Source: a virus. Taken from it: a stretch of 12,264 nt of DNA. This document shows, piece after piece, positions 1 through 12,264 of the stretch. Below the pieces are notes generated by a model. It saw only the letters and a program-made list of their open reading frames with translations. It searched no databases and was not told the origin of the DNA. Numbering within the stretch: position 1 is the stretch's first letter; every line of letters starts with the position of its first letter. Made by a program: the position numbers and the translations under genes. The DNA is taken from UHGV virus genome UHGV-0079336. One strand, 5' to 3'.

Positions 1-72
1 TAATAATTTTTATTTAAAAGTTAATTTTAATAAACTTTTATTACTAAAAAACTACAAGAAAGGAATGATTTT

Positions 73-279
73 ATGGAATATAATAATTATAATGGATATC
101 AACCTTATGCTCCTTTTGACGGAAATAATATTGACCCTAACATTAGTGAACAAAATTTTTTCAATCCAGCCGTTCAATATGAGCAAGCCTACATGTATTA
201 TAGGTATTTATCACAACAAATGGAATATAAAATAAAATGCAAGGAATATGAAAATTTATATAAAAATGAATGTTTGTAA
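73..279 (+). CDS. hypothetical small protein (68 aa), Tyr/Asn-rich, in AT-rich cargo
   Basis: ATG at 73 with AGGAA at 61-65 (7-nt spacer). The DNA is extremely AT-rich, so a chance ORF is possible. No recognisable motif. Confidence 0.3.
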   Translation: MEYNNYNGYQPYAPFDGNNIDPNISEQNFFNPAVQYEQAYMYYRYLSQQMEYKIKCKEYENLYKNECL

Positions 280-502
280 TTGCATGTTTAATATGATGAC
301 CTCGTGTTGACTATTATAAATTATAGGTGTGTAAGATGTTTAAAGTAGATGAGGTGATTAATATCGATTTCTTACTATATATTCAAGCCCTGTGATTAAG
401 CGATGTATTGAATGCTTGTAGGAAGGTTGTATATTATATTGTGTTTAAAATTATGGTGCTACAATTGTTTATGGCGTTTTGCAATCATGCGAAAACCTAT
501 GA

Positions 503-532
503 TTGACAATTGTTACTGAGTCTTGTAAGAAT
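503..532 (+). promoter_or_regulatory. candidate sigma70 promoter upstream of NACHT gene
   Basis: TTGACA at 503-508, then TG-n-AAGAAT (524-532) at 18-bp spacing. Hexamer match only. Confidence 0.25.
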
Positions 533-986
533 GCACCACGTATTGGTTAATGAATGTGGTGAAAAAATGGATGAGTTTCTTGCGACTATTATTAATAGCA
601 CAGTAGGAAAAGCTGCGGAAAAAATAACAGAAGTATTGCTCTCTAAACCTTGGGCTAGGGACCTAGATGAAGGCAAGGTTATACTCGAACAATTAAATGA
701 TCCCCTCGGAAGAGAAAATTATTTAAGAAAGCATGTGCTACCATCTCTGAAAATGAGAACTTTGCACAACGCTGATTATGATATTTTTTTAGATGATATT
801 TATTATCCGTTAACTGTTGAGGTGGCATCTAATAAAGACAAGGTCGTTATAAAAGATGGGATCACTTTACCATTTCATGGTATTGTAAATATAGTCGGTA
901 TAGCAGGGCAAGGGAAAAGTACTATTTTACGCAAGTTGTTTAGCGAGGAAATAAAAAAATCAGAACGGATGCCTTTTTTTTATTGA
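510..986 (+). CDS. NACHT/STAND NTPase, N-terminal fragment with Walker A (frameshifted gene, part 1)
   Basis: Translation contains GIAGQGKST (P-loop). The frame ends at TGA 984-986 directly after a T8 run (974-981). True start is uncertain: TTG 510, ATG 531 or ATG 567 (GGTGA upstream). Confidence 0.7.
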   Translation: MLLSLVRMHHVLVNECGEKMDEFLATIINSTVGKAAEKITEVLLSKPWARDLDEGKVILEQLNDPLGRENYLRKHVLPSLKMRTLHNADYDIFLDDIYYPLTVEVASNKDKVVIKDGITLPFHGIVNIVGIAGQGKSTILRKLFSEEIKKSERMPFFY

Positions 987-996
987 ATTAAGAAGG

Positions 997-2463
997 GTGA
1001 AGAATGCAAATATTATTGCTTATCTGGCAGACATTCTTAATTCATTTGGTGTGGGGTGTTCAGAGGATAGCTTGAAAATATTACTGCAATCCCAAAGAGT
1101 CGTTTTAATGTTGGATGGATTTGATGAGGTTAAACATGAAGAGCGAACTATGATGATGAATGAAATAAAAAACATTCATTATCATTTTAACACACCAATT
1201 ATCGCAACAACGAGACCAAATACAGATATATGTTATACTACTGATGTGTATAATATTTTTATAGATAAGCTAAATATTTCTGATAAGATTTGTATTCTTC
1301 ATTCTTTATCGAAAAATGACAGATTCTCAAGTAGTGATGCCTCGTTTAAAGTCTTGGCGGATTTACTATGTGATAAAGAAGAACTTGAGGGAACTATTTG
1401 CAATCCAATTTTAGTTACTCTTTTGTATTATTGTTATCCTTATATGAATGATATTCCAAATAATATAATAGAGTTTTATCGAAGCCTCTTTGACACCTTA
1501 TATGCAAGGCATGATAAAATAAAAGTATATACGCGCGAGAAAAAATCAAACATTATTGGTGAAAAAGCTAAATTGTGTTTTTCAGCTATTTGCTATAACG
1601 CACTGATTGAGGAGAAATTTGAGTTTTGGGGAGAGGAGTTGCTTAGATATGCTGAAGATGCTATTGAAACAGAAGGTTATCTTAAAGAAGATGCATCAAA
1701 CTTTATAGATGATCTTATTGAGATAACTTGCCTTATCCAACCTGAGGGAAATAATAGGTATGTTTTTCTGCATAAATCAGTGCAAGAATTTTATGCTGCT
1801 TTTGCGGTAGCAAATTTACCGATTGAGTATAAAAAAGATATATACGAAAATCTTATGGTGGCTATTAAATGCTCTGAACAGTTAGATAACTTCATGTTGT
1901 TTTTACATTCACTAGATTCCAAAGCATTTATAGATGAAATCACAATAAAAGCTTCTCGTGATATGGGGGTTGTAGATGTCGCAAACATGACGAGAGAGAG
2001 AGTTGAGAATGTTTTTGACTCGGCACTAAGTAGAGTATTTATCAAAGGCAACTCTACATCGAATGACTCAGTGATTTCGCTTCATTACGACTTTGTATTA
2101 GGTTCGCTCTTAGGTATTGATATTCTACCTATAATGTCTGGAAAAGAACGAGTTCCTATGACAGAAATTGATTTGATTTTTGACGGCCTTTTTTCATGCA
2201 CGATGGATAAGGGTGAGTTAAACTTATACAAATTTGAAGTTAAAAAACAAAAAAATAATATTGATACTGATGTTCAGACTGATGATTATTTATTTCCCTT
2301 GGTGGATTATCTTAAGGTCAGGGGGGTTTATGGTTTGATGCTGGATACTTACCATCAGACAATTAAGGATTTTTATGATAGATATTATCAACCAGCTTAT
2401 GATTCGAATCTTCGAAGAACACTAGCAATGGGAAGAAATTTCAAGTTAAAGAAAAATAATTAA
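997..2463 (+). CDS. NACHT/STAND NTPase, C-terminal fragment with Walker B (frameshifted gene, part 2)
   Basis: Translation has VVLMLDGFDEV (Walker B hhhhDGhDE), IIATTRP, CNPILVTLL and FLHKSVQEFYAAF in the order typical of NACHT domains. The frame is +1 relative to part 1 and open back to 955. Confidence 0.75.
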   Translation: MKNANIIAYLADILNSFGVGCSEDSLKILLQSQRVVLMLDGFDEVKHEERTMMMNEIKNIHYHFNTPIIATTRPNTDICYTTDVYNIFIDKLNISDKICILHSLSKNDRFSSSDASFKVLADLLCDKEELEGTICNPILVTLLYYCYPYMNDIPNNIIEFYRSLFDTLYARHDKIKVYTREKKSNIIGEKAKLCFSAICYNALIEEKFEFWGEELLRYAEDAIETEGYLKEDASNFIDDLIEITCLIQPEGNNRYVFLHKSVQEFYAAFAVANLPIEYKKDIYENLMVAIKCSEQLDNFMLFLHSLDSKAFIDEITIKASRDMGVVDVANMTRERVENVFDSALSRVFIKGNSTSNDSVISLHYDFVLGSLLGIDILPIMSGKERVPMTEIDLIFDGLFSCTMDKGELNLYKFEVKKQKNNIDTDVQTDDYLFPLVDYLKVRGVYGLMLDTYHQTIKDFYDRYYQPAYDSNLRRTLAMGRNFKLKKNN

Positions 2464-2542
2464 ATTGATAGTTACAAAGAGACAGCTAATTATAAGTTTC
2501 TAACAGTTGAAAAATTAATTGTAAGTAGGCAATATTAATAAG

Positions 2543-2658
2543 CCGGAGCCTGAACAACTCCGGTGACTTCTGCGCTAAACGGGGACGTTTATGCGCACAT
2601 ACAATCCAACCTATCTTCTCCATTCACAGATGCAGAAATGCACCTACGCTTTTTTACA
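2543..2658 (+). repeat. structured ~115-bp element, copy 1 (three hairpins then T6); candidate small RNA or cis-regulatory RNA
   Basis: Hairpin 1 CCGGAG/CTCCGG (2543-2563). Hairpin 2 is a 10-bp stem with GGGA loop (2572-2596). Hairpin 3 is TGCA-GAAA-TGCA (2631-2642). T6 at 2650-2655. Possible promoter TTGAAA 2507-2512 with AATATT 2531-2536. Homologous to 4950-5066. Confidence 0.45.
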
Positions 2659-2897
2659 TTCGGTGTTTTACTTCGACAGCCAGAATTGGGAGTCTCTATT
2701 CGTCTGGCGGCTAAAGGTGATATGGAAATCGTTATGTTTTGGCCTGAGGTAGTTGTAACTGTTGTAGCAGCTATGGCTGTGATCATCATGGTGTCCATTT
2801 ACTGGGGTTGACGACATGATTTATCCGGCGCTATATTCTGTGCGTTGCCGCAAAATCGGCACACGGGATTGGCGTCCCGGGATACTACTCAACGCAT

Positions 2898-2918
2898 ACC
2901 GCGTTAAGCGGTTTTTTT
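2898..2918 (+). terminator. weak intrinsic terminator candidate
   Basis: ACCGC-GTTAA-GCGGT hairpin followed by T7 (2912-2918). Confidence 0.3.
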
Positions 2919-3018
2919 GTGCGCTAAGCACGGCTATGCCCAAATTATGGTGGGCTGTGTGAGGGCTTCTTCGGAAGCGCCGGGTTTGAGTAGCCGGTTA
3001 CGCCAACCTTACACAGTT

Positions 3019-3049
3019 CACCACCAGTCGATTGGCGTCGTTGGTGGTG
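3019..3049 (+). promoter_or_regulatory. 8-bp inverted repeat upstream of Bro-N gene (possible operator or RNA hairpin)
   Basis: CACCACCA (3019-3026) and TGGTGGTG (3042-3049) separated by 15 nt, about 25 nt before the start at 3075. Confidence 0.25.
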
Positions 3050-3074
3050 ATGGTTAACCTGATGAGGTGATACT

Positions 3075-3683
3075 ATGACTACTCAATTAGCATTCCACAA
3101 AACGACGTTTACCCCGATTTGCCACAATAACAGAATTTGGCTTACTGCCACTGAAGTTGGTTTAGCACTGGAATATGCGGACGATAAAGCAGTTCAGCGC
3201 ATTTACTCTCGGCACTCAGATGAATTCACAGATATGATGACAAGGGTGGTCAAAGTGACCACCCCTCGTGGAATGCAGGAGTCTCGAGTATTTAGCCTTC
3301 GCGGAGCCCATTTGATCGCCATGTTTGCTCGTACTCCTGTGGCCAAAGAATTCCGCCGCTGGGTGCTGGATATTCTCGATCGAGAAGTTCAACAATCACC
3401 AATCACAAAACAATTCACTGATAACGAACTTTGCACACTCGCCTGGTTATGGCGAGCAAGTGATACGATGTTAATCGCCTGCCAGAACGTTACTCCACTT
3501 CTTCAGGTTGCGGAGCACCGCGAAGCCGGTCGCTTTACTTCTATCAGTCAGGAATATCCCCTGATACTCAGCAAGGCGCGAGCAATCCTTGCCAGAGAAA
3601 CGGCGCATGTAAAATTCCAACCGTGGCAGGATGATAAGTGGAGCAGGGTATTGCCACATTTGCGTCAGGCTAGATTGCAATAG
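3075..3683 (+). CDS. Bro-N/AntA-like antirepressor family protein (202 aa)
   Basis: GAGGTGA RBS at 3064-3070. N-terminal region (…NNRIWLTATEVGLALEYADDKAVQRIYSRHSDEF…) resembles the Bro-N/antirepressor N-terminal domain pattern. Assignment from recalled family pattern only. Confidence 0.6.
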   Translation: MTTQLAFHKTTFTPICHNNRIWLTATEVGLALEYADDKAVQRIYSRHSDEFTDMMTRVVKVTTPRGMQESRVFSLRGAHLIAMFARTPVAKEFRRWVLDILDREVQQSPITKQFTDNELCTLAWLWRASDTMLIACQNVTPLLQVAEHREAGRFTSISQEYPLILSKARAILARETAHVKFQPWQDDKWSRVLPHLRQARLQ

Positions 3684-3845
3684 TTTTACATATTAGGCGC
3701 TGAATGGATGCAAGCAGGTAGCGCACTGGGCGGCAATGATTAAGGCTTCAGATAAGCCAAGTAAGCACTGAAGAAGTTCAATGTAATCAAATTCTCTTTA
3801 TGGTATTTTCGTTAGACCCCTCATGCACTTAGATGGAAATTTGAA

Positions 3846-4046
3846 ATGATGTATTCAGTGACTTTCGATGATACTGGACGAGTAGAAGATATTGAACTAG
3901 ATCGTGAGGTTAGAGCCGGAGATAGACTCTCTCTTAATATTGATGGTCTTGATGGTATTTATATAGTCATGACTGTTAGCGGCCCTATCTATGAAAATGT
4001 TTGTATGCCAATGAATATCCGGGTTCAAAAGTATTGGAAGCAATGA
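3846..4046 (+). CDS. hypothetical protein (66 aa)
   Basis: ATG with weak GGAAA upstream; acidic small protein; followed immediately by a strong hairpin. Confidence 0.4.
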   Translation: MMYSVTFDDTGRVEDIELDREVRAGDRLSLNIDGLDGIYIVMTVSGPIYENVCMPMNIRVQKYWKQ

Positions 4047-4051
4047 TGTAT

Positions 4052-4080
4052 AATCCCCTCAGATGCTCGAGGGGATTTTT
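4052..4080 (+). terminator. hairpin with T-run (terminator or attenuator); 3' arm overlaps the RBS of the next gene
   Basis: AATCCCCTC (4052-4060) pairs with GAGGGGATT (4069-4077) around an 8-nt loop; T5 at 4076-4080; ATG at 4081. Confidence 0.45.
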
Positions 4081-4308
4081 ATGTCAGACTGGAACATTGC
4101 AGCAAAACCGCAAAAGGAACGTGACAAGGTAAGCGTTGGCCTTGCGCTTTCAGGTGTAGCGTATAAAGAACGCCCGAACATGCCGGTTATAGCTAAACAG
4201 GTAGCTAGAGAACAACTTGGGCATCTCCGCGAGTACTTAATGGATCGCGTCCGTTATTACCGTAAGCAGAGCATCACCTTCCAAAAGCATCCGAACCACG
4301 CTACATAG
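4081..4308 (+). CDS. hypothetical protein (75 aa)
   Basis: ATG 4081 with GAGGGGA at 4069-4075. The tracked ORF start at 4063 lies in the hairpin loop and is less likely. Backbone-like GC. Confidence 0.5.
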   Translation: MSDWNIAAKPQKERDKVSVGLALSGVAYKERPNMPVIAKQVAREQLGHLREYLMDRVRYYRKQSITFQKHPNHAT

Positions 4309-4323
4309 AAATGGCAGACTTAA

Positions 4324-4911
4324 ATGCAAGAAAATGAAAAGCAAGAGCAGCATGAAACTGAACCTCAGGATTTAGATTTTCCAGCAGAATTTGACTCTCT
4401 GATTAATGCAAATGGAAAGATAACACCTGCATTGCTAACGGTAGTTAACCGGTATTTTTTATATTTTTCATTCTTTGAATCACTTCTTTTGGGGTGTTCT
4501 GGAAGTCAGGGGAAGAGTTCGAAATACGCAGCGAAATTGTTGGAATTCAAATTAGTTGATCTTGACGTTCTTAAGCGAACATACTTCTTTTTTGCAGACC
4601 GTTATCTGGCAGATGTAGTGAAGTTTGAAAACCTATGTGGTGATTTAGAGCATACATCGCAGAAGGCTAGGGATGAAAAAATTAAGGCCATGCAATTAAA
4701 GACAAACGACCCTGAAATTCAGTTAGGTGTTTGTATTTTTGTTTGTTTCAGGTTGCGAAACAACCTTTTTCATGGACCAAAATGGCGTTATTTGCTTGAT
4801 GGGCAAGAGGATTTGCTCTTAATTGCCGGAAATTTTATACATTCTATTCTATTACAGGTGCCTAGTAGAGATGGCTGGGAATTCAAGAATATTTTAACTT
4901 CTACTGATTAG
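4324..4911 (+). CDS. hypothetical AT-rich cargo protein (195 aa) with HEPN-like Rx4H motif; putative RNase/abortive-infection toxin
   Basis: ORF in an AT-rich island. Contains …CFRLRNNLFHGPKW… (R-N-x-x-x-H spacing as in HEPN RNases). Poor SD, so start is uncertain. Function is inferred from the motif only. Confidence 0.5.
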   Translation: MQENEKQEQHETEPQDLDFPAEFDSLINANGKITPALLTVVNRYFLYFSFFESLLLGCSGSQGKSSKYAAKLLEFKLVDLDVLKRTYFFFADRYLADVVKFENLCGDLEHTSQKARDEKIKAMQLKTNDPEIQLGVCIFVCFRLRNNLFHGPKWRYLLDGQEDLLLIAGNFIHSILLQVPSRDGWEFKNILTSTD

Positions 4912-4949
4912 CTTTGATTTTCCATAATCAACCCGCCATAATCATGTCA

Positions 4950-5066
4950 TCGGAGCCTGAACAACTCCGGTGACTTCTGCGCTTTGAGGGGACTCAAAGT
5001 GCAAACGACAATCAGAACACCTTTCAACCAGTCACAGATGCAGAAATGCACCTGCGATTTTTTGCA
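4950..5066 (+). repeat. structured ~115-bp element, copy 2; candidate small RNA or cis-regulatory RNA just upstream of ninB
   Basis: Hairpin 1 at 4950-4970. Hairpin 2 GCGCTTTGAG-GGGA-CTCAAAGTGC at 4979-5002. TGCA-GAAA-TGCA at 5039-5050. T6 at 5058-5063. Possible promoter TTGATT 4914-4919 with CATAAT 4937-4942. Confidence 0.45.
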
Positions 5067-5096
5067 TCCAACGTTTGACCTCTGCGGAGGTGAAGC

Positions 5097-5552
5097 GTGA
5101 ACCTCCCACAAGACGGCATCAAATTACATCGCGGTAACTTCACCGCTATCGGTAAGCAGATCCAGCCTTATCTGGAGGACGGAAAATGCTTTCGCATGGT
5201 GCTTAAACCGTGGCGCGAGAGACGCAGTCTTTCCCAGAATGCACTCAGCCACATGTGGTACAGCGAAATCAGTGAGTACCTCATCAGCAGGGGGAAATCG
5301 TTCGCTACTGCAGCATGGGTAAAAGATGCTCTCAAACACACATACCTCGGTTATGAAACCAAGGACCTGGTTGATGTCGTAACCGGCGAAATCACTACGA
5401 TCCAGTCGTTACGCCATACCTCCGATCTTGATACCGGAGAGATGTATGTCTTCCTGTGTAAGGTTGAAGCCTGGGCGATGAATATTGGCTGCCACCTGAC
5501 TATTCCGCAGAGCTGCGAGTTCCAGCTGCTGCGCGACAAGCAGGAGGCGTAA
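5097..5552 (+). CDS. ninB: NinB-family recombination protein (YbcN-like, 151 aa)
   Basis: GTG start with GGAGG at 5086-5090. Translation ([15 protein letters not shown]…[18 protein letters not shown]…) matches the DLP12 YbcN/NinB family as recalled. Confidence 0.9.
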
Positions 5553-5722
5553 TGGCTACACCGCTTATTCGGGTCATGAACGGACACATCTACAGAGTAC
5601 CAAATCGTCGTAAGCGTAAGCCTGAGCTGAAGCCATCCGAAATACCAACACTGCTAGGGTATACCGCCAGCCTGGTTGATAAAAAATGGTTGCGACTGGC
5701 AGCAAGGAGGAATCATGGCTGA
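5552..5722 (+). CDS. ninE: NinE-like small protein (56 aa)
   Basis: Not in the ORF track (<60 aa). ATG overlaps the ninB stop (TAATG); AGGAGG at 5542-5547. Translation [56 protein letters not shown]. Confidence 0.75.
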   Translation: MATPLIRVMNGHIYRVPNRRKRKPELKPSEIPTLLGYTASLVDKKWLRLAARRNHG

Positions 5723-6005
5723 TTTGAGAAAAGCAGCGCGTGGTCGGGAATGCCAGGTAAGAATCCCTGGCATATGTAATGGCAACCCTGAAACGTCTGT
5801 ACTGGCACATATCCGGCTGGCTGGATTGTGTGGCACCGGTACCAAACCGCCAGACCTGATTGCCACCATTGCATGTTCTGCCTGTCACGATGAGATCGAC
5901 CGTCGCACGCATTTTGTTGACGCTGGATATGCAAAAGAATGCGCGCTGGAAGGTATGGCGAGAACACAGGTTATCTGGCTGAAAGAGGGGGTTATTAACG
6001 CGTGA
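5715..6005 (+). CDS. ybcO: YbcO-like DUF1364 prophage protein (putative nuclease, 96 aa)
   Basis: ATG 5715 after AGGAGG (5705-5710); the tracked ORF start at 5676 is an N-terminal overextension. Translation [37 protein letters not shown]… with Cys/His-rich pattern. Confidence 0.85.
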
Positions 6006-6364
6006 ATACCTACAGCATCACATTACCCTGGCCTCCGAGCAATAATCGCTATTACCGCCATAATCGCGGGCGCACGCACGTCAGCGCAGAGGGACAGGCA
6101 TACCGCGATAACGTCGCTCAAATCATTAAAAACGCAATGCTGGATATCGGCCTGGCTATGCCAGTGAAAATCCGCATTGAGTGTCACATGCCGGATCGCC
6201 GTCGCCGTGACCTGGATAATCTACAAAAGGCCGCTTTTGACGCACTCACCAAAGCAGGTTTCTGGTTGGATGATGCTCAGGTCGTTGATTATCGCGTTGT
6301 GAAGATGCCCGTTACCAAAGGTGGGAAGCTGGAGCTGACCATCACCGAACTGGGAGATGAATGA
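6002..6364 (+). CDS. rusA: RusA Holliday junction resolvase (120 aa)
   Basis: GTG start overlapping ybcO stop. Translation [37 protein letters not shown]… closely matches E. coli RusA as recalled. Confidence 0.92.
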
Positions 6365-6501
6365 TGTTTGAGTCTTATATGGCAGAACGTCTTCGCCGCC
6401 GCTGGGTGCGCCTGCGCTTATATCGTTTTCCCGGTTCTGTTTTGACCGATTACCGAATACTGAAGAATTACGCCAAAACACTGAAAGGAGCTGCCGCATG
6501 A
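6361..6501 (+). CDS. ylcG: YlcG-like small prophage protein (46 aa)
   Basis: Not in ORF track. ATG-ATG start overlapping rusA stop; stop overlaps the ATG of the next gene (ATGA). Syntenic with DLP12 rusA-ylcG. Confidence 0.5.
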
Positions 6502-7187
6502 ATATCCAATATTTACAGTATGTTCGCGAGCAACTCATGGTGGCTACCGCTGATTTGAGCGGAGTAACGAAAGGCCAGCTTGAAGCCTGGCTGGAGCATG
6601 CTCAATTTGATACTGGTACATACAAACGAAAGAAGCCGCGCATTCTGGATGAGGTAACTGGCAGGATGATTACGCTGGATAATCCGCCGATTTCCGGTAA
6701 GCAGTCGTACGCAAAAGGTTCATCCATTGCACTGGTCAGCCAGGTTGAGTTCTCAACATCTTCATGGCGCCGCGCGGTTCTGTCTCTCGAAGAACATCAG
6801 AAAGCGTGGTTGCTGTGGAGTTACAGCGAAAGTGTTCGCTGGGAGCATCAGGTTGCCATAACGCAGTGGGCATGGAACGAGTTTAAAGCTCTGTTAGGTA
6901 CAAGAAAAATTGCCAGTAAGACACTGGAACGCTTAAAGAAGTTGATCTGGCTGGCGGCACAGGATGTGAAGAACGAGCTGGCAGGGCGTAAGACCTATGA
7001 ATACCAGGAGCTGGCATCACTGGTGGGAGTGACATCAAAAAACTGGTCTGAGACATTTACTGAACGCTGGGTTGCAATGAAGCACATTTTTCTACAGCTT
7101 GATAGCCAAGCTTTATTGCTTTTAACGAAAACACGTTCAAAACAAAAGACGACATTTTCACAGCAAAGTATTGCAAAACTGGATTAA
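6498..7187 (+). CDS. putative late-gene antiterminator Q-like protein (229 aa)
   Basis: AAGGAG RBS at 6485-6490. Lies between rusA/ylcG and a promoter-leader-terminator region preceding the lysis cassette, the canonical Q position. Family not verified by sequence. Confidence 0.5.
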   Translation: MNIQYLQYVREQLMVATADLSGVTKGQLEAWLEHAQFDTGTYKRKKPRILDEVTGRMITLDNPPISGKQSYAKGSSIALVSQVEFSTSSWRRAVLSLEEHQKAWLLWSYSESVRWEHQVAITQWAWNEFKALLGTRKIASKTLERLKKLIWLAAQDVKNELAGRKTYEYQELASLVGVTSKNWSETFTERWVAMKHIFLQLDSQALLLLTKTRSKQKTTFSQQSIAKLD

Positions 7188-7199
7188 AAAGCATATATT
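7171..7199 (+). promoter_or_regulatory. late promoter candidate (pR'-like), overlapping the Q stop codon
   Basis: TTGCAA (7171-7176), 17-bp spacer, TATATT (7194-7199). Confidence 0.5.
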
Positions 7200-7368
7200 T
7201 CGTGTAAATCTGATATTTTGCCAATGTTGTACGCACTGGCAGTAATCCAAATTCAAGCTCGAGGTTTAAAGCCTTGGGCTTTTCTGTTTCTGGGCGGTGA
7301 GTATCCTTCCGACGTACCCCAGCCAGGGTGTCTTCAGCTGTTGAGTTGATATTGCTTAACCCTCTGTT

Positions 7369-7394
7369 GCCAGCTACATGCTGGCTTTTTTATT
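7369..7394 (+). terminator. intrinsic terminator (tR'-like) ending a ~180-nt leader
   Basis: GCCAGC-TACAT-GCTGGC hairpin followed by T6 (7386-7391). Confidence 0.65.
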
Positions 7395-7508
7395 CCAGGC
7401 TTGCGGGGAGCATCAACTCCGTGCTTTGTCGTTAAATTACCCCGTGAGCCTGATTTCTGACATTTAACGTCCCGGCCTTTTGTCGGCGGCGAAACATTGG
7501 CTATTCAT

Positions 7509-7814
7509 ATGCACGAAAAAGAGAGCCTTGCCGGAGCGTTCTGGCTCGTTTTGCTGATCATCGCAGGTTGGGGCGGTCTGGTCCGCTACCTGATAGATGT
7601 GAAGCAGAGTAAAGCAACGTGGAGTTGGATAAATGCTCTGGCTCAGATAGTGGTATCAGGATTCACCGGTGTTATTGGTGGCCTGATCAGCATCGAAAGT
7701 GGATTCAGTATTTACATGATTCTCGCGACAGCGGGGATTAGTGGTGCGATGGGTTCGGTTGCACTGACGTACTTCTGGGAACGACTGACAGGGGTGAAAA
7801 ATGCAAAATCTTAA
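7509..7814 (+). CDS. holin (three predicted transmembrane segments)
   Basis: Three hydrophobic stretches (FWLVLLIIAGWGGLV, WINALAQIVVSGFTGVIGGLI, IYMILATAGISGAMGSVALTYF). Directly upstream of the endolysin with overlapping stop/start. Alternative TTG start at 7497. Confidence 0.75.
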   Translation: MHEKESLAGAFWLVLLIIAGWGGLVRYLIDVKQSKATWSWINALAQIVVSGFTGVIGGLISIESGFSIYMILATAGISGAMGSVALTYFWERLTGVKNAKS

Positions 7815-8277
7815 TCCTCAGCGTAAGGCTTTCCTCGATATGGTGGCATGGTCAGAAGGAACGGATAACGGGCGACAACCGACACGTAATCACGGTTATG
7901 ATGTTATTGTTGGCGGCGAACTGTTTACTGATTACTCTGATCACCCTCGCAAACTTGTCACGTTAAACCCCAAACTCAAATCAACAGCCGCCGGACGTTA
8001 TCAGCTTCTTTCACGCTGGTGGGATGCTTACCGTAAACAGCTTGGTTTGAAAGACTTCTCCCCCAAAAGCCAGGACGCAGTGGCATTGCAGCAGATTAAA
8101 GAGCGTGGCGCTTTACCGATGATTGATCGCGGTGATATCCGTCAGGCTATCGATCGTTGCAGCAATATCTGGGCGTCGTTACCTGGTGCAGGTTACGGTC
8201 AGTATGAACATAAAATCGGTGACCTGATTTCCCGGTTTAAAGAGGTTGGCGGGGTGGTAAATGAAGTTGAGCTATAA
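7801..8277 (+). CDS. R: endolysin, lambda R-like lytic transglycosylase (158 aa)
   Basis: Translation MQNLNPQRKAFLDMVAWSEGTDNGRQPTRNHGYDVIVGGELFTDYSDHPRKLV… is near-identical to lambda R over most of its length, as recalled. Confidence 0.93.
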   Translation: MQNLNPQRKAFLDMVAWSEGTDNGRQPTRNHGYDVIVGGELFTDYSDHPRKLVTLNPKLKSTAAGRYQLLSRWWDAYRKQLGLKDFSPKSQDAVALQQIKERGALPMIDRGDIRQAIDRCSNIWASLPGAGYGQYEHKIGDLISRFKEVGGVVNEVEL

Positions 8278-8722
8278 GCTAGTTATCGCTGCTTTCTTCG
8301 TTACTATTATTGGTTCTTTCATCTGGTCAGCGAATCATTACCACAATCAAGCCATTGAATACAAAAAGCAGCGCGACGAAAACGCTATGGCATTACATTC
8401 GGCTATGGCGACGATCTCTGATATGCAGAAGCGTCAACGTGACGTAGCTGAACTTGACGCCAGATACACAAAGGAGCTTGCTGATGCTAACACGACTCTC
8501 GAAAGTCTCCGTACTGATGTCTCTGCTGGTCGTAAGCGCTTGCAAATCGCCGCCACCTGTGCAAAGTCAACGACCGGAGCCAGCGGCATGGGCTATGGAG
8601 AAAGTCCAAGACTTACAGCTGATGCTGAACTCAATTATTACCGCCTCCGAAGTGGGATCGACAAGATAACTGCACAGGTTAACTACTTGCAGGAGTACAT
8701 CAAGACACAGTGCCAGAAATGA
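8261..8722 (+). CDS. Rz: Rz i-spanin (153 aa)
   Basis: N-terminal TM segment, then …NHYHNQAIEYKKQRDENA…MQKRQRDVAELDARYTKELADA…, resembling lambda Rz. Overlaps the R stop. Confidence 0.9.
   Translation: MKLSYKLVIAAFFVTIIGSFIWSANHYHNQAIEYKKQRDENAMALHSAMATISDMQKRQRDVAELDARYTKELADANTTLESLRTDVSAGRKRLQIAATCAKSTTGASGMGYGESPRLTADAELNYYRLRSGIDKITAQVNYLQEYIKTQCQK
8484..8669 (+). CDS. Rz1: Rz1 o-spanin lipoprotein, embedded in Rz in the +1 frame
   Basis: ATG 8484 with AAGGAG at 8471-8476. Lipoprotein-like signal …LLVVSAC followed by a Pro-rich segment (KSPPPVQSQRPEPAAW). The tracked ORF begins at 8454, but the RBS supports 8484. Confidence 0.8.
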   Translation: MLTRLSKVSVLMSLLVVSACKSPPPVQSQRPEPAAWAMEKVQDLQLMLNSIITASEVGSTR

Positions 8723-8730
8723 ATCTATAG

Positions 8731-8758
8731 ATGACACTCCACGTTCGTATAAGATAAT
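8731..8758 (+). promoter_or_regulatory. candidate sigma70 promoter for the moron gene
   Basis: ATGACA (8731-8736), 16-bp spacer, GATAAT (8753-8758), about 37 nt upstream of ATG 8795. Confidence 0.4.
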
Positions 8759-8794
8759 GCTAAATTACTATTAGCTTAATCACAGGAGACGGAC

Positions 8795-9658
8795 ATGGAA
8801 AGAGGTGTGGTATTTAGTGCATGCGAATTACTTAAAACCGAGGATGGAAAAGGCATCCGTACAGGTAAATGGATTAGTCAATTAGAAATAAACTATCTAT
8901 GTCTTTATTGGGATAAACTAGTTTCACCCACTAATAATATTATACATACAGCATTAAATAACGAGGATGAATTAGAAAAATGTGGATTGCTAACCAGACC
9001 TGTATATAGACATCATGGTTGTTTTGATGGCCAATATATGGCTGATTTTTATGCTGAAACTCATGCCAAAACAATAGATATACTTAGGCATGCGGATTCT
9101 TCTGTCGATTGGCGCATGCATTTTTTAAGTGACCAAATAAACTTGGTGCCTGAATTATCTAGAACCTCAGAAGTGATACGTTTTGAGCTAGCAAATTTAT
9201 TACCCGTTCCCACAGAAGATGTGCACCTACATGATATTCTTGATTTCAAGGAAAGAAGAAAACCTGAATTAATCGCTTTACATGAATATCTTGATGAGCT
9301 TTACTTGGAAATAAAACGTTCTGGTGATATCAATCTTCAGAAAGCAAAAGCTCTTTCTAATCTTAAACAAGCAATAAAGGATATTGAACGCTTAAATTGT
9401 GAAGTGTGGAAAAGTCCAATAAAATTTAGCATCTCCACTTCCTTTGAGTTCGATTTTTCACAAATATTTAGTCTGGCGGGAACTGTTTTATCTATGTCAG
9501 TAGATTATCCTTATAATGTTATTGGAGGGGTAAGTAGTTTTGCTTATTTTTTGGGAGGATGCATAAAAATAAAGCCACAATTTCAACAAGTGTTATCATT
9601 AGGTAATGATAAATTAGTTTACATAAGCAAAGGAAAATCGGAGGGTATTATTTCCTGA
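8795..9658 (+). CDS. hypothetical moron protein (287 aa), AT-rich cargo between Rz and HNH/terminase
   Basis: Strong RBS AGGAGA at 8784-8789. Long ORF in an AT-rich island with its own promoter-like hexamers. No P-loop or other motif recognised. Confidence 0.7.
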   Translation: MERGVVFSACELLKTEDGKGIRTGKWISQLEINYLCLYWDKLVSPTNNIIHTALNNEDELEKCGLLTRPVYRHHGCFDGQYMADFYAETHAKTIDILRHADSSVDWRMHFLSDQINLVPELSRTSEVIRFELANLLPVPTEDVHLHDILDFKERRKPELIALHEYLDELYLEIKRSGDINLQKAKALSNLKQAIKDIERLNCEVWKSPIKFSISTSFEFDFSQIFSLAGTVLSMSVDYPYNVIGGVSSFAYFLGGCIKIKPQFQQVLSLGNDKLVYISKGKSEGIIS

Positions 9659-9734
9659 TTTTTGATTCTCATAATCAATGAATGTTTTTTGTGAATATAC
9701 TTATTTTAACCCTATAAATAATCAAGGTAATAAA

Positions 9735-10085
9735 GTGCCTCCTCGTATCCCGAAAGCCTGCCGTGCTCGAGGTTGCCGTAATACCACCACAGACCCGTCA
9801 GGCTACTGCGAAAGCCACAAAAGCGAAGGCTGGAAGCAATACAAGCCAGGCCAGTCCCGACACCAGCGCGGTTATGGTGCGAAATGGGATGTTATCCGTG
9901 AACGTGTGCTCAAGCGTGACAAAGGCCTGTGTCAGTTGTGTTTGCGTGCCGGTGTGGTGCGCGAGGCGAAAACCGTTGACCACATCATCCCTAAAGCACA
10001 TGGCGGCACTGATGCCGACAGTAATCTGCAGAGTCTGTGCTGGCCGTGTCATAAGGCGAAGACGGCCCGTGAACGGTTAAAGTGA
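9735..10085 (+). CDS. HNH endonuclease (terminase-associated, HK97 gp74-like)
   Basis: GTG 9735 with AAGG at 9724-9727, where composition switches from AT-rich to GC-rich; the tracked ATG at 9678 is probably an overextension. Cys/His motif: CRARGC…CESH…DHIIPKAHGGTD…NLQSLCWPCHKAK. Confidence 0.85.
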   Translation: MPPRIPKACRARGCRNTTTDPSGYCESHKSEGWKQYKPGQSRHQRGYGAKWDVIRERVLKRDKGLCQLCLRAGVVREAKTVDHIIPKAHGGTDADSNLQSLCWPCHKAKTARERLK

Positions 10086-10112
10086 TAATAATTCTCAACT
10101 GTCTGTGGGGGA

Positions 10113-10172
10113 GGGGCGGGTCAAATCCCTGTGACCTGACGTCTTCCGGACTGCCCGCCCCATCGTTTTTTT
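10113..10172 (+). terminator. GC-rich hairpin plus T7 between HNH and terS (terminator and/or part of the cos packaging region)
   Basis: GGGGCGGG (10113-10120) pairs with CCCGCCCC (10154-10161) across a 33-nt loop; T7 at 10166-10172. The position matches where cos lies in HK97-like phages. Confidence 0.35.
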
Positions 10173-10211
10173 ATACCCGCGAAAAATGAAATTTAACCAG
10201 GAGTGCCGCAT

Positions 10212-10706
10212 ATGGCTGGAACGGCGGGGCGTTCCGGGCGTCGCCCCAAGCCAACGGCGCGCAAGGCGCTGGCCGGAAACCCCGGCAAGCGAGCCCTGAA
10301 CAAAGATGAACCTGTTTTTACGCCCATCAAAGGTGTTGAGCCACCGGAGTGGTTCGCAGAAGAAGATCTCCCTCTCGCCACGATCATGTGGCAACTGACA
10401 ACCAAAGAACTCTGCGGTCAGGGCCTGCTGTGCGTGACTGACCTGGCGGTACTTGAGCGGTGGTGCGTGGCCTATGAGTTCTGGCGACGTGCCGTGAAAA
10501 ATATTGCCAGCCAGGGCAACACCATCACCGGTGCAATGGGCGGCAGGGTCAAAAACCCGGAGCTGACCGCCAAGAAAGAACAGGAGTCCGAGATGAGCAG
10601 CACGGGGGCAATGCTCGGACTCGACCCCAGCAGCCGCCAGCGTCTGATAGGCCTGGCGGGGCAGAAGAAAGCCACTAACCCGTTTCTGAAAATCATCGAA
10701 TCATGA
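10212..10706 (+). CDS. terS: terminase small subunit (P27/HK97 gp1 family)
   Basis: ATG 10212 with AGGAG at 10198-10202; the tracked GTG at 10203 has no spacer. N-terminus [34 protein letters not shown] is typical of P27-family small terminases. Confidence 0.85.
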
Positions 10707-12264
10707 GCCGGAAATCTTACCCCAACGTAAATGCTGCCAATCAGTATGCCCGTGATGTCGTGCGGGGAAAGATTGTGGCCTGCCAGTTTGTGATTCAGGC
10801 CTGCCAGCGCCATCTTGATGACCTGATGGCGGAAAAAAGTAAGTCGTTTCGTTACCGCTTCGACAAGGACCTGGCTGAACGGGCCGCCAAATTTATTCAA
10901 CTGTTGCCGCACACCAAGGGTGAGTGGGCATTTAAGAGGATGCCCATCACGCTGGAGCCGTGGCAGCTCTTTGTGATCTGCTGCGCGTTTGGCTGGGTCA
11001 ATAAAGGCTCCCGGCTGCGCCGCTTCCGTGAGGTGTATACCGAAATCCCCCGTAAGAACGGCAAATCGGCAATCTCTGCCGGTGTCGCCCTGTATTGTTT
11101 TGCCTGTGATAACGAGTTTGGCGCGGAAGTGTATTCCGGTGCCACGACAGAGAAACAGGCGTGGGAAGTCTTTCGCCCGGCGCGACTGATGTGTAAACGC
11201 ACACCCATGCTGACGGAAGCGTTCGGGATTGAGGTTAACGCCTCAAACATGAACCGTCCGGAGGATGGCGCGCGGTTTGAACCGCTGATCGGTAACCCCG
11301 GTGATGGATCATCACCCCACTGTGCGGTGGTGGATGAATATCACGAGCACGCCACCGATGCGCTTTACACCACGATGCTTACCGGGATGGGGGCGCGACG
11401 TCAGCCACTGATGTGGGCCATTACTACTGCCGGGTACAACATTGAGGGGCCGTGCTACGACAAACGGCGGGAAGTTATCGAGATGCTCAACGGTTCGGTA
11501 CCCAACGATGAACTGTTCGGGATCATCTATACCGTTGACGAAGGTGACGACTGGACCAACCCACAGGTGCTGGAAAAAGCCAACCCGAATATCGGGGTGT
11601 CGGTTTACCGTGAGTTTTTGTTAAGTCAGCAACAGCGTGCGAAAAATAACGCCCGTCTGGCAAACGTCTTTAAAACAAAACACCTCAATATCTGGGTGTC
11701 GGCGCGTTCGGCGTATTTCAACCTGGTGAGCTGGCAGAGCTGCGAGGATAAATCACTGACTCTTGAGCAATTCGAGGGGCAGCCGTGCATTCTGGCCTTT
11801 GACCTGGCGCGTAAACTGGATATGAACAGCATGGCGCGACTTTATACCCGCGAGATTGACGGTAAAACGCATTACTACAGTGTGGCCCCGCGTTTCTGGG
11901 TACCGTATGACACGGTGTACAGCGTCGAGAAAAATGAAGATCGACGGACAGCCGAACGCTTTCAGAAATGGGTGGAAATGGGCGTTCTGACCGTTACCGA
12001 TGGTGCGGAAGTGGATTATCGCTACATCCTCGAGGAGGCCAAAGCGGCGAACAAAATCAGCCCGGTCAGTGAGTCACCCATCGACCCCTTCGGGGCGACC
12101 GGGCTGTCACATGACCTTGCTGATGAAGACCTGAATCCCATCACTATCATTCAGAACTACACCAACATGTCCGACCCGATGAAAGAGCTGGAAGCGGCAA
12201 TTGAATCGGGGCGCTTTCATCATGATGGCAATCCCATCATGACCTGGTGTATCGGCAACGTGGT
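10703..12264 (+). CDS. terL: terminase large subunit, 5' partial (runs off the window end)
   Basis: Absent from the ORF track because it has no stop in the window. ATG 10703 overlaps the terS stop (ATGA). Continuous 520-codon frame to 12264 with Walker A-like EIPRKNGKS and acidic motifs (VVDEYHE). Confidence 0.9.

Follow-up and report, generated by a model that had tools for sequence, protein, structure and literature searches.

A frameshifted bNACHT gene carried as cargo in a lambdoid E. coli prophage

The window analysed here is a 12,264-nucleotide stretch of the virus genome UHGV-0079336. Near its left end, mechanical ORF calling returns two open reading frames, 510-986 and 997-2463, which divide the motifs of a NACHT NTPase between them. 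The question raised by this locus is whether the two frames are one broken gene, a pair of working genes, or the product of a faulty assembly. If the gene is single and broken, it must also be asked whether the break is an accident or a device for turning the gene on and off. The answer that we consider probable is that the locus is a single-gene abortive-infection system of the bNACHT01/bNACHT11 type, carried as cargo by a lambdoid E. coli prophage, in which a genuine T7-to-T8 frameshift is an ordinary null allele. The features of the locus are collected in Table 1.

Table 1. Features of the bNACHT locus, with positions in the window.
Feature	Position	Strand	Evidence or remark
AT-rich cargo island with NACHT gene	248..2528	+	Composition (32% GC); between P/ren fragment and nin region (ninB) of lambdoid prophage
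Candidate sigma-70 promoter, TTGACA / 18 nt / TG-extended AAGAAT	503..532	+	Best consensus match in 1-3100 (10/12)
bNACHT gene, 5' part in T8 allele	567..986	+	139 aa with C-terminus ...MPFFY; stop codon TGA
N-terminal helical bundle (starts MDEFL; residues 1-61)	567..749	+	Four helices in AF2 model; putative membrane-directed cell-death effector
Walker A / P-loop GIAGQGKST (K117)	897..923	+	G, A, G, Q, K, S, T invariant in 106 homologues
T8 homopolymer	974..981	+	T7 in intact allele: CCT TTT TTT ATT = P-F-F-I
bNACHT gene, remainder in +1 frame	982..2463	+	Residues 139-631 of intact protein; mechanical ORF from GTG 997
Walker B VVLMLDGFDEV	1099..1131	+	D, G, D, E invariant in 106 homologues
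IIATTRP (sensor-1 TTRP)	1198..1218	+	Sequence
CNPILVTLL	1399..1425	+	Sequence
Winged-helix motif FLHKSVQEFYAAF with conserved histidine	1765..1803	+	L-H and E invariant in 106 homologues
Probable SNaCT-type C-terminal sensor domain, diverged, residues 419-631	1822..2460	+	hhalign, BLASTP
GC-rich hairpin, right-hand edge of island	2543..2563		+ strand without T-tail

The break is located at a run of eight T residues between C973 and ATTGA; the stop codon TGA occupies 984-986. Removal of one T yields a single gene of 631 codons, and its product reads ...SERMPFFIELRRVKNANII... The first-pass annotation had described one gene of about 630 codons split by an additional T, and both the tract and the stop codon lie where it placed them. 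The 139-residue product of the T8 allele is identical to a record deposited as 'MAG TPA: AAA+ domain protein [Caudoviricetes sp.]'.

The start codon of the gene is ATG 567. The earlier annotation had begun the gene at TTG 510, the first codon of the mechanical ORF, and this start is replaced because PGAP chooses the position corresponding to window 567 in nine genomes and the M-[DE]-x motif of the family then falls at residue 1. The candidate promoter of the cargo gene, proposed from its consensus match and presumed to function as such, reaches past TTG 510 into ATG 531; this also favors ATG 567.

The repaired protein possesses the complete, ordered set of NACHT motifs, i.e., Walker A, Walker B, the sensor-1 TTRP, and the histidine of the winged-helix domain (WHD), and these are invariant across 106 homologues. 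All five motifs named in the first-pass annotation are present in the ORFs to which it assigned them. The WHD histidine falls in the NLRC4 H443 class, which Kibby et al. used. The Pfam NACHT profile (PF05729) matches the repaired protein with 44 bits (cutoff 26.7) and an E-value of 2.7e-11, and the match covers residues 107-218, across the break at residue 136. NB-ARC and AAA_22, other profiles in Pfam, score below their cutoffs on the repaired protein, and scans with PADLOC and NCBIfam do not recognize it. A profile of the family finds NLRC4 in the PDB at E 3e-10. Structure prediction gives a confident fold for the repaired protein (AF2, pLDDT 89, pTM 0.87), and NACHT proteins rank first among its structural matches. 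The top Foldseek matches are NLRC4, NOD2, NLRP3, and NAIP5 (E 1e-12 to 1e-8); Avs4, Apaf-1, and CED-4 follow at E ~3e-5 or worse. The NLR-like assignment thus holds for the repaired chain, with the break inside its NTPase core. Window 567-2463 is a gene for a NACHT protein, and NTPase activity is predicted for the product.

By sequence comparison, the repaired protein belongs to the bNACHT01/bNACHT11 group, clade 14 of the bacterial NACHT proteins. From residue 1 onward, it shares 35-38% identity with bNACHT01, bNACHT02, and bNACHT12 (E 1e-86 to 1e-90), in a comparison that covers approximately the first 400 residues of those proteins. Homologues of 639 residues were also recovered and are 39-42% identical.

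The regions flanking the NACHT module had been described as being of unknown function, and this description no longer stands for either. Residues 1-4 follow the pattern M-[DE]-[PAE]-hydrophobic across 106 homologues. The MDEFL start keeps D2 and the hydrophobic positions 4 and 5, with E rather than P at position 3; the nearest relatives have MDE[FVI] here, and other family members have A or S. In bNACHT11, the MDPIT motif is required for plasmolysis, and the P3A substitution abolishes function (Robbins et al., bioRxiv 10.1101/2024.12.17.629029). A related motif, MEPIS, belongs to Bell/HeLo-like domains. The N-terminus of the protein described here resembles the clade-14 effector with its MDPIT cell-death motif and is a putative effector of this kind. 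At the other end, hhalign against the C-termini of homologues positive for Pfam SNaCT1 gives a probability of 98% and E 1.9e-13 over 201 columns, and BLASTP against the SNaCT1 region of P0071 gives E 4e-6. The Pfam SNaCT models, including SNaCT1 (PF22710), have no match on this protein, and the isolated N- and C-terminal regions give nothing meaningful against Pfam at E-values up to 10. The C-terminal domain is best described as a probable homologue of SNaCT that falls outside the curated Pfam model. It is also where the alleles vary, as all but two of the allelic amino-acid changes lie within residues 533-587.

Gene callers annotate both pieces of the T8 allele, and GTG 997 sits 11 nt past the stop codon. 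This arrangement could be read as a split two-component system, in which a 139-residue N-terminal fragment (effector bundle plus P-loop) acts together with a 488-residue C-terminal fragment. The frameshift, however, leaves 139 residues of the protein and breaks it between the Walker A helix (helix 1) and the next core beta-strand (strand 2), within the P-loop NTPase core of a confident single-chain model, and the two-component reading is rejected on this ground. AGG abuts GTG 997 with no spacer, and the gene callers differ on the start of the second fragment (997 versus 1108). Moreover, the homologues at 51% identity or less are all single chains of about 620-640 residues. That two functional proteins are made here is extremely improbable, and the locus is taken as one broken gene.

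The next issue is whether the additional T exists outside the assembly. The window is the ENA contig NODE_2864, assembled by SPAdes from a metagenome at a k-mer coverage as low as 3.7. Bases 1-247 have a chimeric look, and homopolymers are the classic site of indel errors. An artefact, with a real tract of T7 and an extra T introduced at low coverage, would fit these facts. On the other side, the identical allele recurs in two further assemblies, for which another assembler was used, with 0 mismatches over about 10 kb and the same private I99 and A905 variants, though the three metagenome assemblies with this allele may share the same reads and the sample may be heterogeneous at the tract. T8 is also present in the complete E. 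coli genome 2014C-4135, whose haplotype differs from that of its T7 twin, STEC17-190, at the tract and one upstream base only. Products of T8 alleles are recorded in 19-29 contigs, and a third background carries A16V. In all, T8 occurs on at least two haplotypes besides that of the window and in dozens of isolate assemblies. Among the loci compared, the tract is T8 in the window, L010, L012, and L002, and T7 in 16 others. The T8 allele is very probably real, judged from these sequence records, and an artefact has only a very slim chance of being the explanation. The first-pass annotation had left three options for the frameshift, i.e., a sequencing error, true pseudogenisation, and a slippage switch. 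The evidence favors a true frameshift allele, and a sequencing error is unlikely in view of the three assemblies and the other haplotypes.

The setting of the gene agrees with the earlier description of it as low-GC cargo in a higher-GC prophage. The island occupies the gap between the replication and nin regions of a lambdoid prophage, and its 32% GC compares with 48% in window 2529-12264. Alignments of all related loci begin at window position 248. Window 1-247 is probably a chimeric contig end, as it is absent from this phage in every related locus. ORF 73-279, which overlaps this segment, was considered as a partner gene and rejected because the segment is missing from every related locus. 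On the right, window 2529-2600 is the sole match in about 2,700 E. coli genomes, and the common phage backbone resumes there. Nine E. coli genomes share the same prophage context, and the prophage slots of relatives at 51-67% identity are comparable. No conserved operon partner was found in the contexts examined, i.e., the nine E. coli genomes and the loci of the relatives. Among 50,697 genomes of isolated phages, megablast with the gene as query returned no match.

Intact forms of the gene are recorded in more than 400 contigs. The tract is T7 and the gene intact in 7 of 9 genomes and in 8 of 8 viral and metagenome contigs matched by pattern. Disrupted forms make up very roughly one in five recorded contigs and include at least seven different lesions. 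T8 itself has at least two to three independent origins. In-silico predictions are matched exactly by further natural alleles, namely T6, A6 at 953, A8 at 2249, S132*, and Q115*, and an insertion allele near residue 177 is also found. The T6 and A16V-T8 alleles are known from protein products identical to in-silico translations.

Tract lengths of T6, T7, and T8 all occur in nature, and T8 has arisen repeatedly, as would be expected if lysogens used the tract as a selected, phase-variable contingency switch to flip an abortive-infection gene. T7 is also kept in four of seven relatives (51-85% identity), although at 51-67% identity only ~40% of synonymous codons are retained, and this is somewhat above the codon-usage expectation of 0.11-0.29 per gene. 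In the other three, including the nearest relative (CCT TTC TTT), the tract is broken; it is T6 in two others, and ranges from T2 to T8 across 25 distant homologues of the wider clade. The tract is short for a contingency locus and is explained by its P-F-F codons, as TTT encodes 30 of the 33 Phe residues in the gene. On/off variation is also not confined to the tract. Irreversible nulls are frequent as well, in the form of stops at 115 and 132 and of the insertion near 177, and so are indels in the two A-runs (953 and 2249); the eight viral and metagenome matches are uniformly T7. A dedicated switch is thus unsupported, given a tract of only T7 or T8, its interruption in three of seven close homologues, and the other routes to knock-out; such a switch is very unlikely. 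It was the last of the three options in the first-pass annotation. We read the T-run as an ordinary hotspot of replication slippage, created by P-F-F codons in AT-rich DNA. The gene seems to lose its function repeatedly at mutational hotspots, and not through a dedicated switch.

A recurrent T8 allele need not be fully silent. RNA polymerase could drop one U on U8, or a ribosome with tRNA-Phe could slip +1 from U5-7 to U6-8, and the T8 gene would then be a hypomorph whose low-level full-length protein still matters for defence. With a GFP reporter that carries a +1 frameshift at poly(T8), E. coli RNA polymerase brought expression back to about 10% of the in-frame control; the host polymerase favors poly(T) of at least 7, and lambda N cut such deletion slippage by about 40%. 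The slipped product would be identical to wild type (MPFFIELRR). On the 3' side of the tract, neither the window nor L002 shows additional damage, and the published run length at which selection begins in bacterial genomes is about 9. Slippage efficiency, however, is strongly context-dependent, and the reporter figure comes from another sequence. The intact downstream sequence is explained equally well by a recent mutation. In addition, the T6, nonsense, and insertion alleles are beyond such rescue yet common, which suggests that full loss is tolerated or favored. Ribosomal frameshifting of the -1 type on U UUU UUU was also considered and rejected because its direction is wrong, as the frame is restored only by +1 slippage or by loss of a base. 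Rescue of T8 by RNA polymerase slippage is possible, and a leaky allele that still contributes to defence is unlikely. The T8 allele is best called null or near-null, and "null" may be too strong given the ~10% rescue in the reporter.

Another reading would make the NLR reversible and tunable through its T-run, with T8 and T6 lysogens off, or ~10% on via RNA polymerase slippage, and reversion to T7 under phage pressure. We regard this as unlikely. If true, the cost of defence and the protection it gives would be traded at the level of the population, and this would be the first phase-variable bacterial NLR.

For the intact protein, the preferred reading of a bNACHT01/bNACHT11-type abortive-infection system suggests a course of action by analogy with bNACHT11. 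The C-terminal SNaCT domain would bind proteins of an infecting phage. The NACHT module would then bind NTP and oligomerize. Clustering of the N-terminal helical bundles, with their MD-x start, would damage the inner membrane, and the infected cell would die ahead of completion of the phage cycle. The gene may be lost so often because an abortive-infection gene is costly or triggers itself, or the prophage may simply decay neutrally.

In RefSeq the gene already carries the name NACHT domain-containing protein, and how the clade works has been published; a full-text literature search for the RefSeq accessions of the protein found no mention. The present analysis shows which family the gene belongs to, where it is broken, that T8 is recurrent and very probably real, and which other nulls accompany it. 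Within the most abundant clade of bacterial NLRs, the protein represents a subfamily that resides in prophages, and its diverged sensor and MDE (rather than MDP) motif could widen the range of activators and effectors. The spectrum of alleles is a natural data set on how often, and by which routes, an abortive-infection gene is lost from prophages, and it bears on the cost of the system.

Among known systems, bNACHT11 of Klebsiella pneumoniae (WP_114260439.1; Robbins et al., bioRxiv 10.1101/2024.12.17.629029) is a single gene for a protein of about 630-640 residues, as here. Both proteins start with a short M-D-x extension, have NACHT at their center, and end in a SNaCT domain, which here is a probable one; NLRC4 and NAIP are the closest structural matches for either. 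They differ at the N-terminus, where MDEFL stands in place of MDPIT and lacks the P3 required in bNACHT11, and in the SNaCT domain, which is here too diverged for the Pfam models. The gene described here is also prophage-borne, in the nin region, and its allele is frameshifted.

bNACHT01 (WP_015632533.1), bNACHT02, and bNACHT12 (Kibby et al., bioRxiv 10.1101/2022.07.19.500537) share the 35-38% identity over approximately the first 400 residues and a rapidly diversifying C-terminal domain. The Walker A lysines nearly coincide in position (K117 here, K115 in bNACHT01), and bNACHT01 depends on K115 for defence (Kibby et al., bioRxiv 10.1101/2022.07.19.500537). The protein here is nevertheless a different subfamily, outside the set tested by those authors, and bNACHT01 is encoded in a chromosomal defence island beside CBASS rather than in a prophage.

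Mammalian NLRC4, NOD2, and NLRP3 share the NBD-HD1-WHD fold (Foldseek E 2e-12, about 470 aligned columns) and the WHD histidine. The identity is ~16%, the bacterial protein has no LRRs, CARD, or PYD, and the sensor and effector domains are unrelated.

The allele, as opposed to the protein, is comparable to the slippage-rescued pseudogenes, e.g., Citrobacter rodentium tssM, Shigella mxiE (T9), and the poly(A) genes of endosymbionts. In these, as here, the frameshift falls on an A/T run, a stop codon follows closely, and slippage would give the exact wild-type protein. Those genes have runs of at least 9 or measured slippage, whereas the run here is of 8 and most natural copies of the gene are in frame.

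The gene under study (567-2463) is a clade-14 bacterial NACHT (NLR-related) gene of the antiphage type, carried by a prophage and broken in this copy by a frameshift. The first-pass annotation had described a NACHT gene split by one extra T; that observation is confirmed and its main interpretation is right. Eight T residues stand between C973 and ATTGA, at 974-981, and the upstream frame therefore closes at the TGA at 984-986. The mechanical ORFs in the window are 510-986 and 997-2463. Removal of one T restores an unbroken 631-codon frame (...SERMPFFIELRRVKN...), and every motif claimed for the NACHT set is found in the window sequence. PGAP places the gene start at the equivalent of window 567 in nine genomes. 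Read from there, the protein has at residue 1 an M-[DE]-x-hydrophobic motif that is conserved across 106 homologues; the TTG at 510 is thus a mere mechanical ORF start.

Features of the gene and natural lesions of its alleles (window positions)
Feature	Position	Description
GIAGQGKST	897-923	motif read in sequence
VVLMLDGFDEV	1099-1131	motif read in sequence
IIATTRP	1198-1218	motif read in sequence
CNPILVTLL	1399-1425	motif read in sequence
FLHKSVQEFYAAF	1765-1803	motif read in sequence
Promoter-like match	503-532	best in region: TTGACA, 18 nt, TG-extended AAGAAT; consensus match alone
Variable stretch of C-terminal sensor domain	2164-2326	residues 533-587 (55): E533K, G540D, C544Y, R585M, V587F
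Lesion T8	974-981	product ...MPFFY, 139 aa; L002 (E. coli 2014C-4135) type, 19-29 contigs; third background with A16V, 4 contigs
Lesion T6	974-981	product ...MPFLLN, 140 aa; 18 contigs
Lesion A7 to A6	953	product ...IKNQNGCLFLLN; 3 contigs
Lesion A7 to A8	2249	563 aa; 2 contigs, and L004 (E. coli 720632)
Lesion TCA to TAA	codon 132	131 aa; 10 contigs
Lesion CAA to TAA	codon 115	114 aa; 1 contig

The repaired protein scores above the Pfam NACHT cutoff (44 bits versus 26.7). The match covers residues 107-218 and crosses the frameshift at residue 136. Among solved structures, a profile built from the 106 homologues matches NLRC4 (E 3e-10). With the same alignment as input, the AlphaFold2 single-chain model is confident (mean pLDDT 89, pTM 0.87), and its best PDB matches are NLRC4, NOD2, NLRP3, and NAIP5 (E 2e-12 to 1e-8); Avs4, Apaf-1, and CED-4 match much more poorly. 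The frameshift is located after the P-loop helix and before the next core beta-strand (FFIELR). Because this site lies within the modelled core, neither fragment can make the NTPase domain alone.

The window is identical to ENA contig ERZ772868:NODE_2864_length_12264_cov_3.70, from a low-coverage metagenome assembly. From position 248 on, the same phage is found in ERZ27262103 k119_106332 and ERZ914796 (run ERR589535, human gut) with zero mismatches over about 9-10 kb, T8 included, though the three T8 assemblies are possibly not independent samples. T8 is independently present in a complete genome, that of E. coli 2014C-4135, where the haplotype departs from the window at about a dozen sites. 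Between this copy and its T7 twin in STEC17-190, only the tract and one upstream base differ. Exact-sequence look-up finds two T8 products of the 2014C-4135 type, mostly in isolate assemblies, and a third T8 background. Since T8 is carried on other haplotypes across many contigs, a one-off sequencing error is unlikely.

None of 19 related loci contains positions 1-247 (24% GC); lambda P and a ren fragment stand there instead, as they do in the two assemblies of the same phage. This segment is probably chimeric, at the end of a metagenome contig with 3.7x coverage. A 68-aa ORF at 73-279, across the 247/248 junction, has no Pfam or PHROG match.

T7 is the majority state. It is found with an intact gene in seven of nine complete genomes and with a different frameshift in one more, in all seven IMG/VR contigs, and in the sole match from a metagenome collection. 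Intact 631/643-aa forms occur in more than 400 contigs. Natural truncated products agree with in-silico predictions for several independent lesions, and a further lesion is an insertion near residue 177. The disrupted share of about one fifth is rough, because 40 members are listed per cluster and contigs are not independent events. In L004 (locus 6268-7959), the A7 to A8 change at window 2249-2255 truncates the protein in a prophage that has taken up IS600 and ISKpn26 as well, an example of gene and prophage decaying side by side.

Sequencing error, pseudogenisation, and a slippage-controlled switch had all been offered for the frameshift. A selected contingency switch is very improbable: the tract ranges from T2 to T8 across 25 distant homologues, and of seven relatives with 51-85% identity, four have T7 and three a broken tract, the nearest included (CCT TTC TTT). 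Codon usage alone gives T7 with a probability of 0.11-0.29 per gene. The T-tract is not conserved. A 40%-identical homologue in Citrobacter sp. NCU1 (L021, match 4001-5593) has T8 in frame at this P-F-F site (CCA TTT TTT TTG), so an intact family member tolerates an 8-T run. The simplest reading is that P-F-F codons, in DNA this rich in AT, make the T-run an ordinary replication-slippage hotspot, and that the gene is often lost, T-run slippage being among the routes. With error unlikely given recurrence in isolates and a dedicated switch disfavored by the unconserved tract, the extra T most likely marks a real loss-of-function allele, recent in origin and recurrent.

Some full-length protein may still plausibly be made from T8, given published slippage and a slipped product identical to wild type. 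In published reporter work, slippage by E. coli RNA polymerase is detectable on poly(T) tracts of at least 7, and a +1 frameshift at poly(T8) regains ~10% of the in-frame level. Lambda N cuts this rescue by ~40%, and bacterial genes show evident selection against A/T runs from ~9 nt. By in-silico translation and sequence reading, the exact wild-type protein would result if one U were dropped or if tRNA-Phe slipped +1 from U5-7 to U6-8. A functionally meaningful leak is nonetheless unlikely.

In nine of nine E. coli genomes, the gene belongs to a lambdoid prophage, where it has replication protein P plus a truncated ren on one side and the nin region (P22AR/Bro-N, ninB, ninE, rusA, and Q) on the other. 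GC content is 32% at 248-2528 versus 48% in the remaining window, in line with its description as AT-rich cargo. Homologues with 51-67% identity are found at similar positions of other lambdoid prophages, and the gene is absent from isolated phages in INPHARED. The candidate promoter fits an autonomously expressed cargo gene.

A GC-rich hairpin (CCGGAGCCTGAACAACTCCGG, 2543-2563), with no + strand T-tail, marks the exact end of the AT-rich island, where backbone common to ~2,700 E. coli genomes restarts. In the Enterobacter locus L050 2019-8905, a 62%-identical homologue (P0007) comes directly after prophage O and P. Its neighbours there are genes for a KAP-family NTPase, a Ser/Thr kinase, and an FRG-domain protein, in what resembles a defence cluster within a prophage. 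Elsewhere in the window, 8795-9658 (+) encodes a 287-aa DUF6236 protein (PF19749, 110 bits; phrog_23128) in 34% GC DNA between Rz and HNH/terminase genes. Strains DAM and ANT have iss/bor there on the opposite strand. This is a second slot for cargo, filled in the window by an uncharacterised gene. At 4063-4911 (+), in DNA of ~38-40% GC, the phage encodes a DNA polymerase III theta homologue (PF06440, 87 bits), after which comes a 195-aa protein with no Pfam match, assigned to phrog_27260.

Clade 14 is the bNACHT01 group (Kibby et al., bioRxiv 10.1101/2022.07.19.500537). Identity to bNACHT01, 02, and 12 (sequences from Table S2 of Kibby et al.) is 35-38% over the ~first 400 residues compared (E 1e-86 to 1e-90), and the alignments to bNACHT02 and bNACHT12 begin at residue 1. 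RefSeq already has the gene as a NACHT domain-containing protein, and the family mechanism is published; for this subfamily, a defence role is suggested by analogy.

The flanking regions had been called of unknown function, but both have published counterparts: a SNaCT sensor and an MDPIT-type N-terminus. The C-terminus has no match to Pfam models. In profile-profile comparison, the subfamily C-termini match those of SNaCT1-positive homologues (98% probability, E 1.9e-13, 201 columns). Amino-acid differences among nine E. coli alleles all fall in the variable stretch except I99V and M135I. This clustering agrees with the rapid SNaCT diversification reported by Kibby et al. and is consistent with diversifying selection on a sensing surface.

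The AlphaFold2 model and homologue alignment give the N-terminus as a small bundle of helices that opens with MDEFL. In bNACHT11, the MDPIT motif is required for plasmolysis killing, after SNaCT-phage protein binding and heptamer formation (Robbins et al., bioRxiv 10.1101/2024.12.17.629029); motifs of this type are also found in Bell/HeLo-like membrane-targeting domains. The bNACHT11 precedent would extend to this subfamily by likeness, within the limit set by position 3: bNACHT11 has P there and P3A abolishes function, whereas the window protein has E.
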